From the sequence record NC_048172.1: 43,264 bases of DNA. One strand, given 5' to 3'. This document shows, piece by piece, positions 3,495 to 10,920 of this stretch (positions within the stretch are counted from its first letter, which is position 1; each line of letters starts with the position of its first letter). The translations under genes and the position numbers were made by a program. Below the pieces are notes generated by a model, which had not been told where the DNA came from, did no database searches, and worked only from the letters and a program-made list of their open reading frames with translations. The stretch is from Escherichia phage Minorna.

Positions 3495-5350
3495 TATCGT
3501 CTTCCTCTATGTTGTTTGCCTCTACCCCGACCTTGCAGCCGTGCAGCGACTCCCCGCAACTGTTTCTGGACCATACCCTGTGCCCAGTCCAACGGGTTAT
3601 TGATGAATGCTAGTGCCTGCTTCTCAGACTCTCGTGCAGCTACCACTTTCTCATCTTCTACCAGATGCCCGTTCAGTACTGCTACCATCATAGCGATGGC
3701 GTCTGCTCGGTCATCCTTAGCCAAGCTACCCCGGTCATACGTAATACCTGCGAGCTGTGCGAACGCAGAGTACAACCAGCGACGATCTCGGGGGTATAGC
3801 ATACAAGTCCCAATATCATCGTGAATAGCACGCTCATGCACCACTAGGCGGTGTCGTCGAGTTACTGGACTGATTGTGTCTATGATACGACGTTCTTTCT
3901 GCGTGGTGTTGTTAATGTCACGCACACCAATACCAGCAAGGTGACGCTCTCGTAAGCGGTTCAGAATAAGCATAGACACGGTACCGTGCCCCATGTTACT
4001 CTCTACCACCATGTCAGAGATGTCTAACTCTACGCACAGGTCAATGAGCTTGTCGATATTCTCGGTGCTTACACCTCCTTGGAAGCCCCCAACTGAGAAC
4101 AGATGAATGTATGAGTTAGCAGCCCCGCCCGCAGCATAGGAGACTTCATCCCCACCACAACCAGCTGGGTCCACCACCAGCACCTTGTGCTGATACGGCA
4201 AGTGCATATCTCCGTAGAATGCCGGGAAGTACATCTGCTGACCCATAATCCCCTCATGCTCGTGCTGGTATAAGTACCGGCGGTCCGCAATGTAGGAGAA
4301 GGTCTCTGGGGAGGAATCCTGGCTACCAGAGTAAACCAGCATATCCGAAAGCTTGATACGTGTACGCATCTGGTCGGACAGGGTTGTGTCGAGCATGTAC
4401 TGCAACTGGAAGCCTTCTGGGCCGAAGTCCAACTCCTTCTCAATCAGCGCATCCTCATCGTAGCGACCCTTATCGGTGCTCTCCCCTAACGTCCCATCGA
4501 CGCCGAAGCCGGTGCGTTTATAGCCGCGCTCAATAAGCTCCCGGATATAAGGAGCAAGTGTACTTCCATATCGCTCTTCCATTTCAACAGACGGAATGCG
4601 CCCAGGCCACACGCGGACCTCGAAGCCACGTCCCGGCAGTGTTTTATAGATACTGTCCTTGGTCTGTGGTGTACCCAGGTACAGCGTATCCCCGTGCGTA
4701 CAGATGGCCGCGAAGTCTTTAGAAATCGTCAGCAGCTGCTCGCGCTGGGTTTGCGTTAAGCCGTTCTTGGTGGTCTCGATATCGTCCGGAATCAGTAGGT
4801 CCGCACGCTTCCCCTGTAGGGATGCAGTGATACCTACACAGGCTACGCTGGCGGACTTATCTAGAGGTTTCAGGTCACAGTGTACGTCGTAACCTTCAAA
4901 GGAGGTTCGGTCCCCACGTGTAGGGTCAGCCTTCAAGTAGCACAGCAGCGGCCAGGTTTCCAGCATACGAATAATTAAGTTTGCTACGTCGGAAGCCTGC
5001 TTCTCAGCACCCGACACAATCAGGATACGGCAGGATTGGTCCTGGATGAGCCTCCAGACAGCGTATAGCGCAGCTAGTGTAGACTTAGCCTCACCACGCT
5101 GTGCAGCCACCATGCGCTTCCTAGGGCCCTTCTGCATATACTCTGCAATGTCGGCTTGCATGTCCGTGAGCGTAAAGCCTAGGAAGCGCATACCTATATA
5201 TGCGAACTCCCTGAAATTACTGAGGGTAGCCGCCATCATCATGGCGATATCCTCGCGCTCCTCTTTGGGAATACTGCGCGGGTTCGCATTATAACCAGTA
5301 AGTTTCTGGTTGAGCATGCGCAGTCTTCGCGCAGTCTTCACCGATACCAT
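3494..5350 (-). CDS. terminase large subunit (T7 gp19-like DNA maturase B)
   Basis: 618-aa ORF at the position and size of T7-like large terminases, with ATPase-like N-terminal half and nuclease-like C-terminal half; directly follows the putative small subunit. Confidence 0.85.
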   Translation of the reverse strand: MVSVKTARRLRMLNQKLTGYNANPRSIPKEEREDIAMMMAATLSNFREFAYIGMRFLGFTLTDMQADIAEYMQKGPRKRMVAAQRGEAKSTLAALYAVWRLIQDQSCRILIVSGAEKQASDVANLIIRMLETWPLLCYLKADPTRGDRTSFEGYDVHCDLKPLDKSASVACVGITASLQGKRADLLIPDDIETTKNGLTQTQREQLLTISKDFAAICTHGDTLYLGTPQTKDSIYKTLPGRGFEVRVWPGRIPSVEMEERYGSTLAPYIRELIERGYKRTGFGVDGTLGESTDKGRYDEDALIEKELDFGPEGFQLQYMLDTTLSDQMRTRIKLSDMLVYSGSQDSSPETFSYIADRRYLYQHEHEGIMGQQMYFPAFYGDMHLPYQHKVLVVDPAGCGGDEVSYAAGGAANSYIHLFSVGGFQGGVSTENIDKLIDLCVELDISDMVVESNMGHGTVSMLILNRLRERHLAGIGVRDINNTTQKERRIIDTISPVTRRHRLVVHERAIHDDIGTCMLYPRDRRWLYSAFAQLAGITYDRGSLAKDDRADAIAMMVAVLNGHLVEDEKVVAARESEKQALAFINNPLDWAQGMVQKQLRGVAARLQGRGRGKQHRGRR

Positions 5351-5658
5351 TAGACAATTCCTTCTAGTAAGTCCTCAGAGTCTGAACCACTAATCTTGTT
5401 CAAAATCTCTTTCTTACGCGCCTCTCTGCGCGCCGCTAGTTCGTCATCGAATTCATCACGTAGCTCCTGCATCTCCTCGGAATCTGCATCGGCGGTGATG
5501 TCATTGTCTTTCAGGAACTTGGCAATAACAGATTTATCAGCAGCCGGTAAAGGGACCGCATCTTCCCCGGCCTGACGCAGCTCCTCAATAAGTGCCTCCG
5601 TGAACATGCGGTGCAGTTCGCTGAGTCGGCTACGCGTTCCTGCCTTGGATACAGCCAT
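5350..5658 (-). CDS. putative terminase small subunit (DNA maturase A)
   Basis: 102-aa acidic helical protein immediately upstream of, and translationally coupled to, the large terminase; assignment by position and size only. Confidence 0.5.
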   Translation of the reverse strand: MAVSKAGTRSRLSELHRMFTEALIEELRQAGEDAVPLPAADKSVIAKFLKDNDITADADSEEMQELRDEFDDELAARREARKKEILNKISGSDSEDLLEGIV

Positions 5659-5667
5659 AAACCCTCC

Positions 5668-6009
5668 TTACCAGCCCACGGTGTAAATCAGAGCACCCAC
5701 TGGGAGTTCACTGGCGAAAGTTACAGTAGCCCCGCTGAGCGTGTAGCTATAGCCGGGAATCTGAATAACCCCATTGATGTAGATATCTACATCCGTGTAG
5801 GTGTTAGTTAAGGTAAAGGTAGTCCCTGCCTTGGATACAGTCAGGTACGCCGATGTACGGACACCCGGCTTAAGCGGCTTACCCCCAGCAGTGCTGCCAT
5901 CTCCAATGGTCAAAGTGTTGCTAGTGGTCAGAAGAACCAACTCCCCGGCCTTCAACACCTTGGTTGCCACTACGGCATCAGCACCTCGGCGTAGTTGTAA
6001 AGTTGGCAT
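5668..6009 (-). CDS. small tail-fiber-like protein (paralog 2)
   Basis: 113 aa; N-terminus MPTLQLRRG..AGELVL..GDGSTAGGKP parallels the adjacent 149-aa ORF and resembles N-terminal motifs of phage fiber proteins. Confidence 0.5.
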   Translation of the reverse strand: MPTLQLRRGADAVVATKVLKAGELVLLTTSNTLTIGDGSTAGGKPLKPGVRTSAYLTVSKAGTTFTLTNTYTDVDIYINGVIQIPGYSYTLSGATVTFASELPVGALIYTVGW

Positions 6010-6021
6010 TTCTACCCCCTA

Positions 6022-6471
6022 TTAGGTAATGACACCCAGGTCAATATTTTGCAACGTAGTATTGATGGTAACAGCAGCTGAGCCGTCAAAGTTAGCTGTA
6101 CCACTCACGTCACCAGACAATGCAATAGCTCTGGCAGTAGTCAGCTTAGCAGCACTACCCGTGGTGTTGACACTAGCAGTACCGGTTAGCAAGTTTGCTG
6201 GTACATCGGTAACTGCAAACGTAACGTCAGCACTACCGTCGAAACTTTGAGGAGCCGCCGTAATACCGGAGAAGCCAATAGTTCGAGCAGTCTTCAGTTT
6301 ATCGGCGGTGGATGCCGGGGTACCGGCACCTACCGGGAAGCCACCTGCGGTTGTACCATCACCCACGTAGATAATTTTAGCGGTGCTGTCATACACCAGC
6401 TCCCCGGCAAGCGGGATATACTTAGAGACCTGGGCGGTAGTCCCACGTTTAAGTTGTAAAGTTGGCATCAA
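6022..6471 (-). CDS. small tail-fiber-like protein (paralog 1)
   Basis: 149 aa; N-terminus MMPTLQLKRG..AGELVY..GDGTTAGGFP; Thr/Ala/Gly-rich remainder; follows the fiber adaptor gene. Confidence 0.5.
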   Translation of the reverse strand: MMPTLQLKRGTTAQVSKYIPLAGELVYDSTAKIIYVGDGTTAGGFPVGAGTPASTADKLKTARTIGFSGITAAPQSFDGSADVTFAVTDVPANLLTGTASVNTTGSAAKLTTARAIALSGDVSGTANFDGSAAVTINTTLQNIDLGVIT

Positions 6472-7220
6472 AGTTCTCCTAAGTCCATGTTATATACATA
6501 CTCTTTTAAGTCGTCGAACTCAGACCGTGACACTGCATCCAAGTCCGTCGAATCCTGTCCGATACGCACAGACACTACTGTACCAGCCGGAATTGTCTCA
6601 GCCAGGATAATCTGGTTGTTCACAATACTGAACCCGTAACCGATATCCTGGTGCACCCCATCAAGATACAAGGTGGCACGAGTAAATCGGTACGGTGGGC
6701 TGATGATATTAGTCGGGACCGTGGTAACAGTACACCACGGGATAGTCACATCATCTGTGTTTATACCCTGCTCAAGCGCGGTTACACGGGCATCTACTAC
6801 ATCCAGCTGTCCCTTGTTTACAGCGTCTCCGGGATTAACACCATCCCCAAGATTGGTAATCCGGTAGCCGTTCATGCTTATATCCCCGTAGAATCCGGGG
6901 ATGGCCCTACCCTCCACCAGCTCTTGAGCTAAGTGTAAGAACTGTGTGTTTTGAGAGTCTACGTTCACCTCGATGAATGGGGAACCGCTAGCAAACTCAA
7001 TGTACAGATACTCGCGCTCAGTCTTGCGAATGAGCAGTACCGTCGTATCCGCTGTCAAGGCTGTGTTCAGCCTAATATTTGTAGAGCTGGTCCAGGTGTA
7101 CCCAGTGGTTTCAACGCCGTCGAGATATACATGAATATAGGACTTGTCCAAATATTCAATATCACACTGGATATCCTGGGTACCAGCTGGCTTGATTTGC
7201 TCTTGCCAGCTGTATGCCAT
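6468..7220 (-). CDS. tail fiber protein / adaptor (T7 gp17 N-terminal-domain-like, no large distal domain)
   Basis: 250-aa ORF directly after the internal virion protein genes, the canonical gp17 position; too short to carry a full receptor-binding domain. Confidence 0.6.
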   Translation of the reverse strand: MAYSWQEQIKPAGTQDIQCDIEYLDKSYIHVYLDGVETTGYTWTSSTNIRLNTALTADTTVLLIRKTEREYLYIEFASGSPFIEVNVDSQNTQFLHLAQELVEGRAIPGFYGDISMNGYRITNLGDGVNPGDAVNKGQLDVVDARVTALEQGINTDDVTIPWCTVTTVPTNIISPPYRFTRATLYLDGVHQDIGYGFSIVNNQIILAETIPAGTVVSVRIGQDSTDLDAVSRSEFDDLKEYVYNMDLGEL

Positions 7221-7221
7221 A

Positions 7222-10200
7222 TTAATCGTCTCCGAAGTTATTGATGATAGCTCGCGTAGGCGCGAATTCCTGGATTAACGGGACCTGCTTAGTGAAGGTC
7301 TGGATATCCATATCCCCAGTAGCCAGGGCTTGCACCGCACCCAACAGCCCGGTGACGTAGCCCATAGACGCCAGAGAATGACGCGGAGAGTCCCCAGTGA
7401 AGATATCCTGCAGAAGCGAGATACCACCGATGGCACTCATACCCATAACCGATTCAGCGATAAGCTTTTGAGTGTCGACCTCTTTGCCGTCCATACCGTG
7501 CTTCGCCATAGTTGCTAGAAGCATCAATGGGAACTGGTATGCCATGATGTGTGCAACCCCAATCCACCCGGCATCATTCAACTCGCGGCGCAGAATCTTG
7601 TTGGTGGCAGCCAGGGCGAAGCTCTGATAGCCGACAATTACTTTGCCGATAGGGTTGAACTGGGCGAAGTGCGAGGTCTCACCGGTACGTACTTGCTGCA
7701 CCAAATAGTCCATCATACGCGTCCCTACCACCTCAACTTGCATTTGCAGGTCCGGCTGGAACATAGCACCAGGATTAGCTTTGTTAGCAGCAATAGCCCG
7801 GTCAGCGATTTCACGAGTAAGACCGAAACGTTCCAGACGCTTAAACGCCTCAGCGTCGCCCTTGAACATCTGCTGGAGCTCGTCCGCTACAATACCTGAG
7901 TTAAGGTTAACCTGCAGTCGATGTACCATACTCATACCGTTGACGTGACGTGCAGCCTGTCCAACGTTCTGGGTGACGTTAAACCAGGAAGCCTGACGGG
8001 TCAGGTCCAAGTTATCGTCTGCGTAGGTATTCAACCAGCGGAAGCGCATCTCCTTCTGGATACTACCACGTAGGATTGCATCCAGACGACTAGCCATATC
8101 CGGAGTGCGAATAGCTACGGAACCTTCTTTAAACCAAGGCTGCTCACGCATACTGCGAAGTACTCGGGACATACCAAACTCTTTCAGCGCTAGGGCGGTG
8201 TCAGTAAGCTGGTACAACCCAGAGTTCTTAAGCATGGTAGCGTTGGCCATGTTACCGGCTGCACGGAGCAGGTCCGGCATCTGCCCGGCGTCGGCTGGTG
8301 CCCCACCTAAGATAAAGTCGATGGTGTCATTAACGGTCTTCTCCCACTTACCTGAATCGGCCAGGGCGTGTTTGGACTCATTAATCATTGTCTCCAGCAC
8401 CTTGAGGTCAGATATCCCAGCATAAGCCATACCCACACGACCTGACATTCGGTTAGTATAACCATGCATAACCTTGGCTACGTCAGTATCCATCAGATCC
8501 TGCATACGCATAACCTGACCGTCTACGATGTACTCTTTGTCCATGTTGAAGCGGGTACGTTGACGGAGGTTCTTAGCAGGCGAGGTGGCGCCAGATTCTC
8601 GGACATTACCTGCCAAGAAACTCTGGATTGCATCCTCGTCTACACCAGCATTACGCATGGCCATAACTACTTCATCATTACCCATACCATTGATGAGTTG
8701 CTTCCACATAGGACCAGAGGCCGAGGAGCGTCCGTTGTAGATACCGTCAACCATCTCCTTAGCAACACGTTGAACGACCTCAGGCTCCATAGATGGATAC
8801 ACATCACGCAGTGCCTGACGGAACAGATCCCGATAATTATCCAAGGAGCGACCATTTGCAATACCTTGGCGCATCTTATCGTAGCTGTACTGGCGAGGGA
8901 AGTAATAGTCCGATTTAATCAGAGTACCGTCATCCACCAGCCCGGCAGCAGTCATGTGATCGTGCCACTTACTGGCCCAGCCGGAGTTGCGGTATGCCTC
9001 TACTAGCGGAACCAAGTCAGAGTCCGGCAGAGGTACCGGGCGTCCATTAACCTCCGCGCTGTATGCAGAGTCCAGGTAACGGCCCAAGCGGGCTTCTAAG
9101 TCAGCGCGAGCTGCTCGGAAGTTGCTACGGTGGAAGAAGCGGTCTATGAAACCTACACCTTTGGCCTTAAGGGCACCAAGTATAGCGTCCTCAACTACAC
9201 TGGCACTAGCGTCCATCTCCAACGTAAGGTTACGCTTGAAGTCCACCACAGACGGTTTACGACCGCCTACAGCAGTAGCGTCAGATACTAGTAAGCGTGC
9301 CAGGTCCTCGCTACCCTCTGCGATGTTATCATACAGGGAGAACATAGTGGCGAACTTGCGCTTAGCAGTGTCCATCATAGCTTGGGCCTTCAAGGCCTCA
9401 TGCTTAACCGATGTATCCGCCAAGTCCTGGAAGGCCTCACTCCGGAAGCTCTGAGCTTGGTCTGCGTAGTCCTTTGCGGTCCACTTGACAGCATCCTCGT
9501 ACGCGTCCAGAACATCCTCCAGAGCGGACCCCTTGGTGCGAATCCCCAGGGCATTCATGATGTACTCACCAATCTGGCGGAGCATACTCCTACCAGTAGG
9601 AGATTGAGTTCTAGAGAGATACTCCACCCACTCAGGGCTATCACCTAGTCCTGCTAACATCTCGTGCACATCGCTTGCGTAGTACTTAAGCTTATCACTG
9701 AGGGTTGAATCAGCTGCTATTGCAGCGCGCACCTCTTCCAGCTTACTAGCAATTTCAGGATTCTGCTTGATGGCTCTGGTGGTGGCAGCGTGAATCAGCT
9801 CGTGCACTGCTACTCGGCTAGTGTCCGCATCCATAGCACGCAGAGCATCCCCGGCAGTAGTCCAGGTACTTCCGTTCGCTTTCTTAGGGGCACGTAAAGA
9901 TATAAAACCCCTATCAGTTGTTGATGCTGGTGAAAATCCGTAGTGACTACGGTTAGAAGAACCGGCCACCAGTTTAAAGTCGATATCCTGTACTGCGTCA
10001 CCCAGGGTGTCCAGGATAGCCTTCTGACCTTTAGATAAGTGTTCAGAGGTCTTGAGGAAACGGACTACGTCCTGCGCTTTCATGTTAACAGCAGCAGTGT
10101 TATTCCGGCGAACTTGGATAGGTTCATCCAGTACCTTAGTGAGTATTGTGTCCCCTTCTCCTACTCCTGTAACATTAGCATCCCTTGCTGTACGAGTTGT

Positions 10201-10920
10201 GGGCGCGTCCGGGTCAAACATAGGCTCACGCCCAGTGCGTGCCTTTGCTGCTGCTTTAGCAGCCTTAGACATATCCCAGAGCTGGTCTAGTCCAGCTACC
10301 CCTGCTACCAGAGCAGTGACTGCCGCAGACTGTCCCAATTGATCTTGTGCATAGACAGCTGTACCTACATCCGCTGCACGGATAGCAGTACGCACTGCTA
10401 AGCCAGCACGACCAGCGATACCCGCCGCTGACATCGGAGCCAGTATAAATGGAGCATCACCAGCCAGTGCACCGGCGAACCCAGCTACCGTGTTATCAGA
10501 CATCTGACGGTCACGGTCACGCTGTTCTAGCATAGCCTGAATGCGATAATTATAATCATCCAAGGACACCGCCCCGTGCAAGTAATCAATCTCTTCCTGA
10601 TTAGGGGTGTAGAGCTTAGCTCTGGAGTCGGTGCTTAGTTGTTTCTTAGCATCAAACCCCTGCTCTGGGATGAATGTTGGGGAGGAGGCCTTTCTAATGG
10701 CTGCAGCTATAATGCTGTTACCAACCCCAGCAGCAAAGCTTTCCCCTGCTGACGTCGCTGGGGTTTTAGCCTGGGCCAGTATAGATGAACGCTGTAGTGC
10801 ATTCAGCCCATCATCTCCTGCGTCATTCCAATCTACGCTTGCAGGCGCAGGTTTAAGTGTTGCGCCCTTAGCAGAATCCTTTTCCTGTGGATTCGGTTCT
10901 TGGTTCAGAAACTGAGCCAT
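7222..10920 (-). CDS. internal virion protein C (T7 gp16-like)
   Basis: 1232-aa ORF, third and largest of three consecutive large ORFs after tail tubular B, matching the gp14-gp15-gp16 order. Confidence 0.75.
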   Translation of the reverse strand: MAQFLNQEPNPQEKDSAKGATLKPAPASVDWNDAGDDGLNALQRSSILAQAKTPATSAGESFAAGVGNSIIAAAIRKASSPTFIPEQGFDAKKQLSTDSRAKLYTPNQEEIDYLHGAVSLDDYNYRIQAMLEQRDRDRQMSDNTVAGFAGALAGDAPFILAPMSAAGIAGRAGLAVRTAIRAADVGTAVYAQDQLGQSAAVTALVAGVAGLDQLWDMSKAAKAAAKARTGREPMFDPDAPTTRTARDANVTGVGEGDTILTKVLDEPIQVRRNNTAAVNMKAQDVVRFLKTSEHLSKGQKAILDTLGDAVQDIDFKLVAGSSNRSHYGFSPASTTDRGFISLRAPKKANGSTWTTAGDALRAMDADTSRVAVHELIHAATTRAIKQNPEIASKLEEVRAAIAADSTLSDKLKYYASDVHEMLAGLGDSPEWVEYLSRTQSPTGRSMLRQIGEYIMNALGIRTKGSALEDVLDAYEDAVKWTAKDYADQAQSFRSEAFQDLADTSVKHEALKAQAMMDTAKRKFATMFSLYDNIAEGSEDLARLLVSDATAVGGRKPSVVDFKRNLTLEMDASASVVEDAILGALKAKGVGFIDRFFHRSNFRAARADLEARLGRYLDSAYSAEVNGRPVPLPDSDLVPLVEAYRNSGWASKWHDHMTAAGLVDDGTLIKSDYYFPRQYSYDKMRQGIANGRSLDNYRDLFRQALRDVYPSMEPEVVQRVAKEMVDGIYNGRSSASGPMWKQLINGMGNDEVVMAMRNAGVDEDAIQSFLAGNVRESGATSPAKNLRQRTRFNMDKEYIVDGQVMRMQDLMDTDVAKVMHGYTNRMSGRVGMAYAGISDLKVLETMINESKHALADSGKWEKTVNDTIDFILGGAPADAGQMPDLLRAAGNMANATMLKNSGLYQLTDTALALKEFGMSRVLRSMREQPWFKEGSVAIRTPDMASRLDAILRGSIQKEMRFRWLNTYADDNLDLTRQASWFNVTQNVGQAARHVNGMSMVHRLQVNLNSGIVADELQQMFKGDAEAFKRLERFGLTREIADRAIAANKANPGAMFQPDLQMQVEVVGTRMMDYLVQQVRTGETSHFAQFNPIGKVIVGYQSFALAATNKILRRELNDAGWIGVAHIMAYQFPLMLLATMAKHGMDGKEVDTQKLIAESVMGMSAIGGISLLQDIFTGDSPRHSLASMGYVTGLLGAVQALATGDMDIQTFTKQVPLIQEFAPTRAIINNFGDD

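Follow-up and report, generated by a model that had tools for sequence, protein, structure and literature searches.

What do two small genes contribute to a phage tail when they sit between the gene for a tailspike/tail-fibre adaptor and the gene for the small terminase? We asked this of Escherichia phage Minorna (NC_048172.1; IMG/VR UViG_2974544971_000001). The window analysed is the complete 43,264-bp podophage genome, read on the minus strand. With 97% identity to Escherichia phage AV102 (Autographiviridae, Slopekvirinae, Drulisvirus), it is by sequence a Drulisvirus-like E. coli podophage. An earlier note on this DNA had pointed to two adjacent open reading frames (ORFs) of 149 and 113 amino acids (aa), here called ORF-A and ORF-B, and explained them as a local duplication of one small tail-associated protein. 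The adjacent pair and its siting between a T7 gp17-type adaptor and the small terminase are confirmed (Table 1), and both genes lie on the minus strand; the first product is better read as 148 aa, and a recent local duplication is not supported. Based on domain content, terminal motifs and gene order, we see about even chances that the adaptor, ORF-A and ORF-B form a three-part, non-covalently chained side fibre.

Common heads on different bodies

The two proteins share their N-termini and then diverge, as had been noted: 26 of 53 residues are identical (BLASTP, E 5e-13), the first 17 nucleotides (nt) of the two genes are the same, and beyond about residue 50 the sequences are unrelated. Both heads belong to the Pfam domain Mtd_N (PF18454), matched over residues 5-40 with 46.7 bits in ORF-A (E 3e-12) and 36.6 bits in ORF-B (E 4.3e-9), for a gathering score of 26.3 bits. 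Mtd_N is the beta-prism that forms trimers at the N-terminus of Mtd, the receptor-binding protein of Bordetella phage BPP-1, and of hyaluronidase fibres of phages. The AlphaFold2 (AF2) model of ORF-B is compact (predicted local distance difference test, pLDDT, 93), and 44 of its residues superpose on Mtd (1yu4_A) at 1.1 A, which points to the fold of an Mtd beta-prism protomer. ORF-A and ORF-B are the sole frames of the window to bear Mtd_N in a six-frame search, and the head was not found on the 506-aa tailspike among the window frames searched. The Mtd_N profile also has a weak PDB match to the head-decoration protein gpD of phage lambda (E 0.012, residues 15-42), a hint at a shared trimeric beta element.

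Behind its head, ORF-A consists of two fibre repeats of about 45 aa. They match the C-terminus of Dec (PDB 6e3c_C, E 1e-6), PHROG long-tail-fibre families (E down to 1e-14; phrog_11011, E 1.1e-14) and a repeat in the fibre of IK_ECO1 (E 7e-4). Capsid decoration was considered for ORF-A, whose top PHROG match is labelled 'head decoration protein', next to the PDB match to Dec. It was rejected because those matches most likely reflect the shared fibre repeat.

ORF-B instead carries a beta-domain of about 60 aa, the bead, which is homologous to the C-terminal domain of the adaptor (E 1e-4, 26% identity). The bead matches positions 193-247 of phrog_2710, and residues 51-111 of ORF-B align with residues 163-221 of HRP29 gp44 (E 9.9e-12); further matches are PhiM1 gp47 (E 3.6e-13) and 9k4a_A (E 5.7e-14), and the solved adaptors and tailspike N-termini matched by the bead include a K1 depolymerase. 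It shares its fold with the XD domains of the CBA120 TSP proteins, with a marginal sequence match to the N-terminal part of TSP4 (E 0.016). The same bead (…Y-x-N-G-x-x-Q-x-x-x-x-D-Y-T…) is repeated in tandem, as many as 15 times, in the large fibre proteins P0077, P0055 and P0093, so it is also a generic shaft unit and not a branching site alone.

The adaptor itself begins at its N-terminus with an anchor of the T7 gp17 type, followed by a coiled coil, a beta-domain of the branching type (residues ~175-220) and a C-terminal extension of 20 aa. In the PDB it matches HRP29 gp44 (8es4_G, E 1.9e-82) and '23sh_r tail fiber gp9' (E 4.9e-100). Among 497 phage records, only AV102 has the same extension past about residue 231. 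A Pfam scan finds the Phage_T7_tail anchor (PF03906) in the adaptor only, ORF-A and ORF-B being without it. By homology, ORF-A and ORF-B are most likely structural parts of the tail, and their earlier description as small, fibre-like and tail-associated is borne out; NCBIfam has no match for either.

The start codon of ORF-A, at 6468, overlaps the stop codon of the adaptor (TGATG), with GGAG 7 nt upstream. The L-G-E codons of the adaptor tail (TTA GGA GAA, window 6471-6479) serve as the Shine-Dalgarno sequence of ORF-A. ORF-B starts 12 nt past ORF-A and has its own ribosome-binding site, and no promoter-like or terminator-like site was seen on the coding strand between the three genes. The annotation of AV102 places the start and the 148-aa length of ORF-A likewise, and labels one of the two genes 'tail fiber protein' and the other 'hypothetical protein'. 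Together with the conservation described below, this organisation shows ORF-A and ORF-B as functional genes, predicted to be co-transcribed and translationally coupled with the adaptor. A frameshift fusion of adaptor and ORF-A was rejected because the junction varies among lineages (1-nt overlap, 4-nt overlap or 10-nt gap). We also rejected ORF-A and ORF-B as targets of a diversity-generating retroelement: they have no C-type-lectin domain, the window holds no template/variable repeat pair of at least 30 nt, and the two proteins align to Mtd residues 5-133 and 5-94 only.

Tails upstream of Mtd_N heads

The adaptor ends in …YNMDLGEL and ORF-A in …NIDLGVIT; ORF-B, ending in …YTVGW, has no such tail. 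We describe the motif as hydrophobic-[DN]-hydrophobic-G-x-hydrophobic, then 0-2 residues and the C-terminus. Among the window frames of at least 60 codons, it is present in the adaptor and ORF-A only.

We collected by hand the adaptors of five lineages with the A/B pair, all ORF-A orthologues, and the corresponding proteins of Ep4, BV72, GP100 and BPP-1 (Bbp9). Every protein of this set that is encoded just upstream of an Mtd_N-headed gene ends in the motif. Orthologues of ORF-A end in DLDLGTL, DIDLGVL, DVDLGVLT or NIDLGVL. In the Pseudomonas phages Ep4, pphageBV72 and GP100, an adaptor ending in …PLDFG(S/A)L or …PLDMGVLP is followed by an Mtd_N-headed fibre of 292-307 aa, and the Bbp9 fibre of BPP-1, whose gene precedes mtd, has the C-terminus …GLADLGGIA. 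One further cluster (L016) has a 216-aa anchor ending in …PLDMGTL, with a pectate-lyase gene separating this anchor from the Mtd_N fibre. The motif is not found in the adaptors of F19, phiHAO78-1 and IK_ECO1, relatives that lack ORF-A and ORF-B.

An independent scan of IMG/VR with a six-sequence alignment of the Mtd_N head returned 79 further loci in 16 lineage groups. The motif as fixed beforehand occurs upstream of the head in 2 of these 16 groups against a background of 0.85% (P ~0.008 by our binomial estimate); a relaxed form, defined after seeing the data, occurs there in 10 of the 16 against 2.2%. Almost all motif-bearing frames at these loci lie directly upstream of an Mtd_N start, and doubled tails are frequent (…NLDFGTFASPVGFTLDLGSF).

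The same pairing is found within single chains, where the motif stands just before an internal Mtd_N domain. In L074 (L074/L078, IMG/VR) the sequence …YDFGTFLAPASQRF runs directly into RLRRG; in P0069 …SDFGTFTNPTPARF is likewise followed by RLRRG, and in P0089 …LLIDGPRY is followed by QHRRG. The C-terminus of P0089 also reads …GLVDGGNF. A metagenomic locus (L021:2819-6071, IMGVR_UViG_3300011609_000019) encodes, in series, a 288-aa anchor (…SVDYGEL), a 95-aa spacer resembling ORF-A (…DLGTLA), a 185-aa protein made of Mtd_N plus a knob, and a pectate-lyase tailspike. In sequence its knob is related to the tip of the fibre of the sister phage IK_ECO1, a single chain of 502 aa (E 8e-13), so modules that form one polypeptide in IK_ECO1 are elsewhere split and joined by these connectors. 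A second locus (L066) is a further three-gene series of the same pattern. The Shine-Dalgarno constraint as the sole cause of the motif was rejected: the tail of ORF-A lies 25 nt from the next start, which has a separate Shine-Dalgarno sequence, and the single-chain junctions would be left unexplained.

From these neighbourhoods we put forward, tentatively and with the chances somewhat against it, that tail motif and Mtd_N head form a general plug-and-socket junction which concatenates trimeric fibre modules encoded by consecutive genes in unrelated phage groups. Its users would include Autographiviridae, Zobellviridae-like phages, marine phages and the Rauchvirus BPP-1, where it would be the way in which Mtd is fixed to the Bbp9 fibre. 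ORF-A would then be a free-standing 'extension lead' with both plug and socket, and could in principle add to itself to give a fibre of adjustable length.

A proposed jointed side fibre and its alternatives

How widely are the two genes inherited? Among 50,697 GenBank phage records, ORF-A or ORF-B is found in AV102 only, where both genes are intact; a literature search returned no paper on this phage. The other ~250 Drulisvirus-related records have a fibre or adaptor of 300-500 aa directly before the terminase. The distribution extends further in metagenome assemblies: three further Drulisvirus-like lineages have an adaptor of 251-252 aa, an ORF-A of 148-150 aa and an ORF-B of 114 aa. There the orthologous genes are adjacent, stand behind the ~251-aa adaptor and are 57-68% identical to those of the window. 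The pair also occurs behind unrelated anchors in two distant backbones (L013/L015 and L014). With the adaptor, and at similar sizes (ORF-A 148-150 aa, ORF-B 112-114 aa), the two genes thus recur in at least five diverged metagenomic lineages.

These comparisons speak against a local duplication. The two proteins have only the ~50-aa head in common, their C-terminal halves being different modules; the pair is old, with orthologues side by side in diverged lineages; and those orthologues are closer to each other than are the two heads within one genome (41-54% identical).

ORF-A and ORF-B diverge (57-68% identity) at the pace of core structural proteins such as gp16 (61-64%) and the adaptor, all at about 60-65%, whereas the tailspike is replaced (24-26%), which argues against the pair as the main determinant of specificity. 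Selection is purifying at depth: the ratio of nonsynonymous to synonymous divergence (dN/dS) of ORF-B is 0.13 between L013 and L015, and between L010 and L011 dN is 0.14 and 0.22, with dS saturated. The latter two genomes are mosaic. Their tailspike proteins are 100% identical and gp16 and the large terminase 95%, while adaptor, ORF-A, ORF-B and small terminase are only 73-84% identical with saturated synonymous divergence, so the block from adaptor to small terminase appears to be passed on as a single recombination unit. Compared with AV102, ORF-A of the window has a dN/dS of 0.89. Its shaft has 10 nonsynonymous to 5 synonymous codon changes (Fisher p = 1e-5 against the other genes), and all 10 amino-acid differences fall in residues 75-141 (window 6046-6245), the first 74 residues being identical. 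This excess would suit either a surface-exposed shaft or a short-term relaxation of constraint. A part in diversifying receptor interaction, as the earlier note suggested, may still fall to the pair. ORF-A also exists in versions of 96, 133, 148-150 and 235-240 aa that differ in repeat content and always keep head and tail, as expected of a spacer.

In the side fibre that we propose, the three consecutive gene products would join head to tail without covalent links at each of the six tail positions. The anchor domain of the adaptor would be seated on the tail, and the Mtd_N head of trimeric ORF-A would grip the adaptor's own tail (…NMDLGEL-COOH). ORF-A would act as a spacer of variable length whose tail (…NIDLGVIT-COOH) is gripped in turn by the head of ORF-B. 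Having no tail, ORF-B would end the chain and present a second copy of the tailspike-docking type of domain at the distal end. That domain could bind a second tailspike trimer, or the sole tailspike moved outward on an extension arm, or the host surface. Co-inheritance of adaptor, ORF-A and ORF-B as one recombination block counts for such a chain.

Several observations weigh against the chain or the general junction. Only 1 of ~250 sequenced relatives carries the pair, which is therefore dispensable for the basic Drulisvirus tail, and both proteins are known here from their genes alone. An AF2 pseudo-trimer (three adaptor tails and three ORF-A heads, GGGGS linkers, paired alignment of 23 rows, one per lineage) gave pLDDT 76-85 for the heads, 85 for the tail helix and below 50 for DLGEL; docking was not predicted, although the linkers fused to the C-termini may have disturbed the model. 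The relaxed form of the motif was fitted to data already seen. In a large marine-looking group of Mtd_N-headed proteins of about 455 aa (L028, L034, L036-L041, L043 and more than 25 other IMG/VR loci), the ORF upstream, of about 115-145 aa, ends in …KQFLKKRK, and no gene within 4 kb bears the motif. No motif stands ahead of the internal Mtd_N repeats of P0056, P0068 and P0085. In the Streptococcus prophage 315.4 (L099:1360-3504), the tail protein just upstream of the hyaluronidase HylP, whose head is Mtd_N-like, ends in …PQIILDGGKK, a partial match only. Finally, with the L-G-E codons doubling as a Shine-Dalgarno sequence, conservation of the adaptor tail could partly be at the nucleotide level.

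Would other arrangements of virion parts explain the locus as well? ORF-A and ORF-B might dock separately through their Mtd_N heads on one adaptor site, as alternative or mixed short appendages, with the ORF-A motif a mere end of the fibre repeat. Homologous heads, 80% identical in L013/L015, could indeed recognise one socket, and the AF2 result contains no tail-to-head docking. We nevertheless regard two independent mini-fibres as unlikely: the ORF-A tail persists in every length variant and looks like the tails of adaptors, which there come after unrelated folds (coiled coil, knob), L021 and L066 repeat the three-gene pattern, and Dec of phage L, which has the same fibre repeat, shows no matching motif at its chain end (residue 137) in the alignment. 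It is doubtful, if less far-fetched, that the chain exists to carry the 506-aa tailspike on the XD-type domain of ORF-B, moved outward by a tunable spacer or doubled to two trimers per fibre. The adaptor retains its own branching domain in all lineages, phiHAO78-1 has the tailspike N-terminus of L013 without ORF-A and ORF-B, the bead of ORF-B is just 26% identical to that of the adaptor, and beads of this type are also tandem shaft modules (P0077, P0055).

Two further explanations place the products outside the particle or deny them a function. Small genes directly after fibre genes are often chaperones, such as T4 gp38 or Tfa of lambda, Mu and P2, and ORF-A and ORF-B might likewise be assembly chaperones or scaffolds that act in morphogenesis. 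This is very unlikely, as no tail-fibre assembly chaperone family (Tfa, gp38, Caudo_TAP etc.) matched in Pfam, PHROGs or NCBIfam and all the domains that did match (Mtd, Dec stalk, adaptor, tailspike N-domains) are structural parts of virions. That the two genes are decaying N-terminal stumps of longer receptor-binding protein genes left by module exchange is more improbable still, close to negligible. Related fibres with an Mtd_N head reach about double the length and end in a knob for receptor binding, the N-terminus of P0167 (467 aa) matches the ORF-B profile over nearly its full length, P0069 (1278 aa) starts with Mtd_N, and the dN/dS of ORF-A against AV102 would suit decay. Against this, sizes are kept at 57-68% identity across lineages, selection at depth is purifying, the ribosome-binding sites are intact and the genes coupled, and ORF-B gives a confident model; we rejected the remnant reading on conservation and dN/dS. 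The jointed side fibre remains the most likely of these readings.

Genome context and comparison with known systems

The features of the locus and its surroundings are collected in Table 1. The gene series runs from a gp16-like ejection protein through adaptor, ORF-A, ORF-B and small terminase to the large terminase, and continues with two small ORFs, spanin, holin, endolysin and the 506-aa pectate-lyase tailspike.

Table 1. Coordinates of the adaptor, ORF-A, ORF-B and associated features in the window
Feature	Position	Strand	Remarks
gp16-like ejection protein	7222-10920		
Tailspike/tail-fibre adaptor, 250 aa	6468..7220	-	Pfam PF03906, E 2.7e-17
Adaptor tail motif D-L-G-E-L-COOH, codons	6471..6485	-	TTA GGA GAA double as Shine-Dalgarno sequence of ORF-A
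ORF-A, 148 aa	6022..6468	-	Mtd_N head, two fibre repeats (shaft), C-terminal tail motif; proposed role: spacer module
Mtd_N domain of ORF-A (residues 5-40)	6349..6456	-	PF18454; pLDDT 76-85 in AF2 pseudo-trimer
Two fibre repeats of ORF-A (residues ~52-141; K-L-x-T-A-R…F-D-G-S-A-x-V)	6046..6315	-	
ORF-A C-terminal tail I-D-L-G-V-I-T-COOH	6025..6045	-	Kept in every ORF-A orthologue and length variant
ORF-B, 113 aa	5668..6009	-	Mtd_N head, one branching/XD-type beta-domain, no tail motif; proposed role: distal platform or cap
Mtd_N domain of ORF-B (residues 5-40)	5890..5997	-	PF18454
ORF-B beta-sandwich 'bead' (residues 52-113)	5671..5856	-	Domain type of the adaptor's branching region
Small terminase	5350-5658		
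Pectate-lyase-type tailspike, 506 aa	160..1680	-	Pfam PF12708, E 1.8e-14; after lysis genes

By its position and by analogy with KP34 and HRP29, the 506-aa tailspike is the enzymatic receptor-binding protein (RBP) and is presumed to dock on a branching domain. A 22-nt direct repeat (20 of 22 positions matching) lies at 5636-5657 and 5822-5843, 186 nt apart; both copies code for V-S-K-A-G-T, one where the small terminase begins and one within ORF-B, and the repeat may be chance or microhomology. The window (1-43264) contains no tRNA gene and no direct repeat of at least 30 nt, so the record as given shows no terminal repeat.

Multi-part and branched receptor-binding complexes set phage host range and are the main target of phage engineering. 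Two connectors are known so far from T7-like podophages: the gp17-type anchor, and the pair of branching domain and conserved peptide. A short C-terminal tail fitting into an Mtd_N head would, if true, be a third type, mobile between phage backbones, and would offer a simple handle to add or extend fibre modules in synthetic phages, with ORF-A as a ready-made spacer of naturally varying length. The same junction would hint at how Mtd, the diversity-generating protein, sits on its fibre. Should the chain prove wrong, ORF-A and ORF-B are still a small, conserved accessory, so far unannotated, of some E. coli Drulisvirus-like phages. A jointed fibre of adaptor, ORF-A and ORF-B would be an uncommon variant within a known type of phage host-recognition apparatus; the systems that it resembles are set beside it here.

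In the anchor-branch system of KP34, HRP29 and PhiM1, a short adaptor (truncated RBP1) docks the tailspike via a T4gp10-like branching domain (Latka et al. 2019 PMC6872550; 2026 PMC13352976; PDB 8ES4, 8VBX), and in the literature on this type secondary RBPs can bear further branching domains. By its match to HRP29 gp44, the window adaptor is a member of this group; the tailspike follows the lysis genes, and ORF-B bears the same type of beta-domain. In known members, however, the adaptor leads directly to the terminase (F19), whereas the window has the additional C-terminal tail on the adaptor and two Mtd_N-headed proteins, neither with an enzymatic or knob domain. ORF-B looks like a secondary-RBP module reduced to head and branching domain. 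The XD2-XD3 tailspike-assembly domains of CBA120 TSP4 and T4 gp10 (PDB 7RFV, 7REJ) are marginally similar in sequence; in CBA120 they belong to a full-length tailspike, carried by the baseplate of a myovirus.

Single proteins of related build occur in Ep4 (Slopekvirinae), pphageBV72 (Krylovirinae) and GP100 (Zobellviridae). As in the window, the adaptor carries the tail and is followed by an Mtd_N protein with head and one fibre repeat. The difference is that this is one fibre of 292-307 aa whose tip is globular and binds the receptor, and the tailspike gene comes next, while the window has two shorter proteins and no knob. In BPP-1 (Bbp9 and Mtd, PDB 1YU0), an upstream fibre with the same kind of tail again precedes an Mtd_N head. 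Mtd, however, has 381 aa, and its beta-sandwich and C-type-lectin variable domain, diversified by a retroelement, set it apart from ORF-A (148 aa) and ORF-B (113 aa), which have neither the lectin domain nor, in the window, the repeat pair. Solved structures include none that shows how the Mtd head is mounted, and a literature search on Bbp9/Mtd and PF18454/Mtd_N gave no relevant structural work, its matches being dominated by 'mtDNA'.

By analogy, the closest functional counterpart is the fibre of the phiKMV-like phage Ar-KM, where a 251-aa fibre (gp44) holds the N-terminus of the next ORF product and the downstream gp45, gp46 and gp47 are present in virions (bioRxiv 10.64898/2026.05.18.726046). 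As in Ar-KM, a fibre of about 250 aa would here anchor, via the N-terminus, the small proteins encoded between it and the terminase, giving a flexible, multi-part appendage. The joints differ: the gp44 knob of Ar-KM is plugged by one hydrophobic helix of gp45, a 3:1 mismatch, Mtd_N heads and the C-terminal tail motif are absent, and its proteins share no homology with ORF-A or ORF-B.

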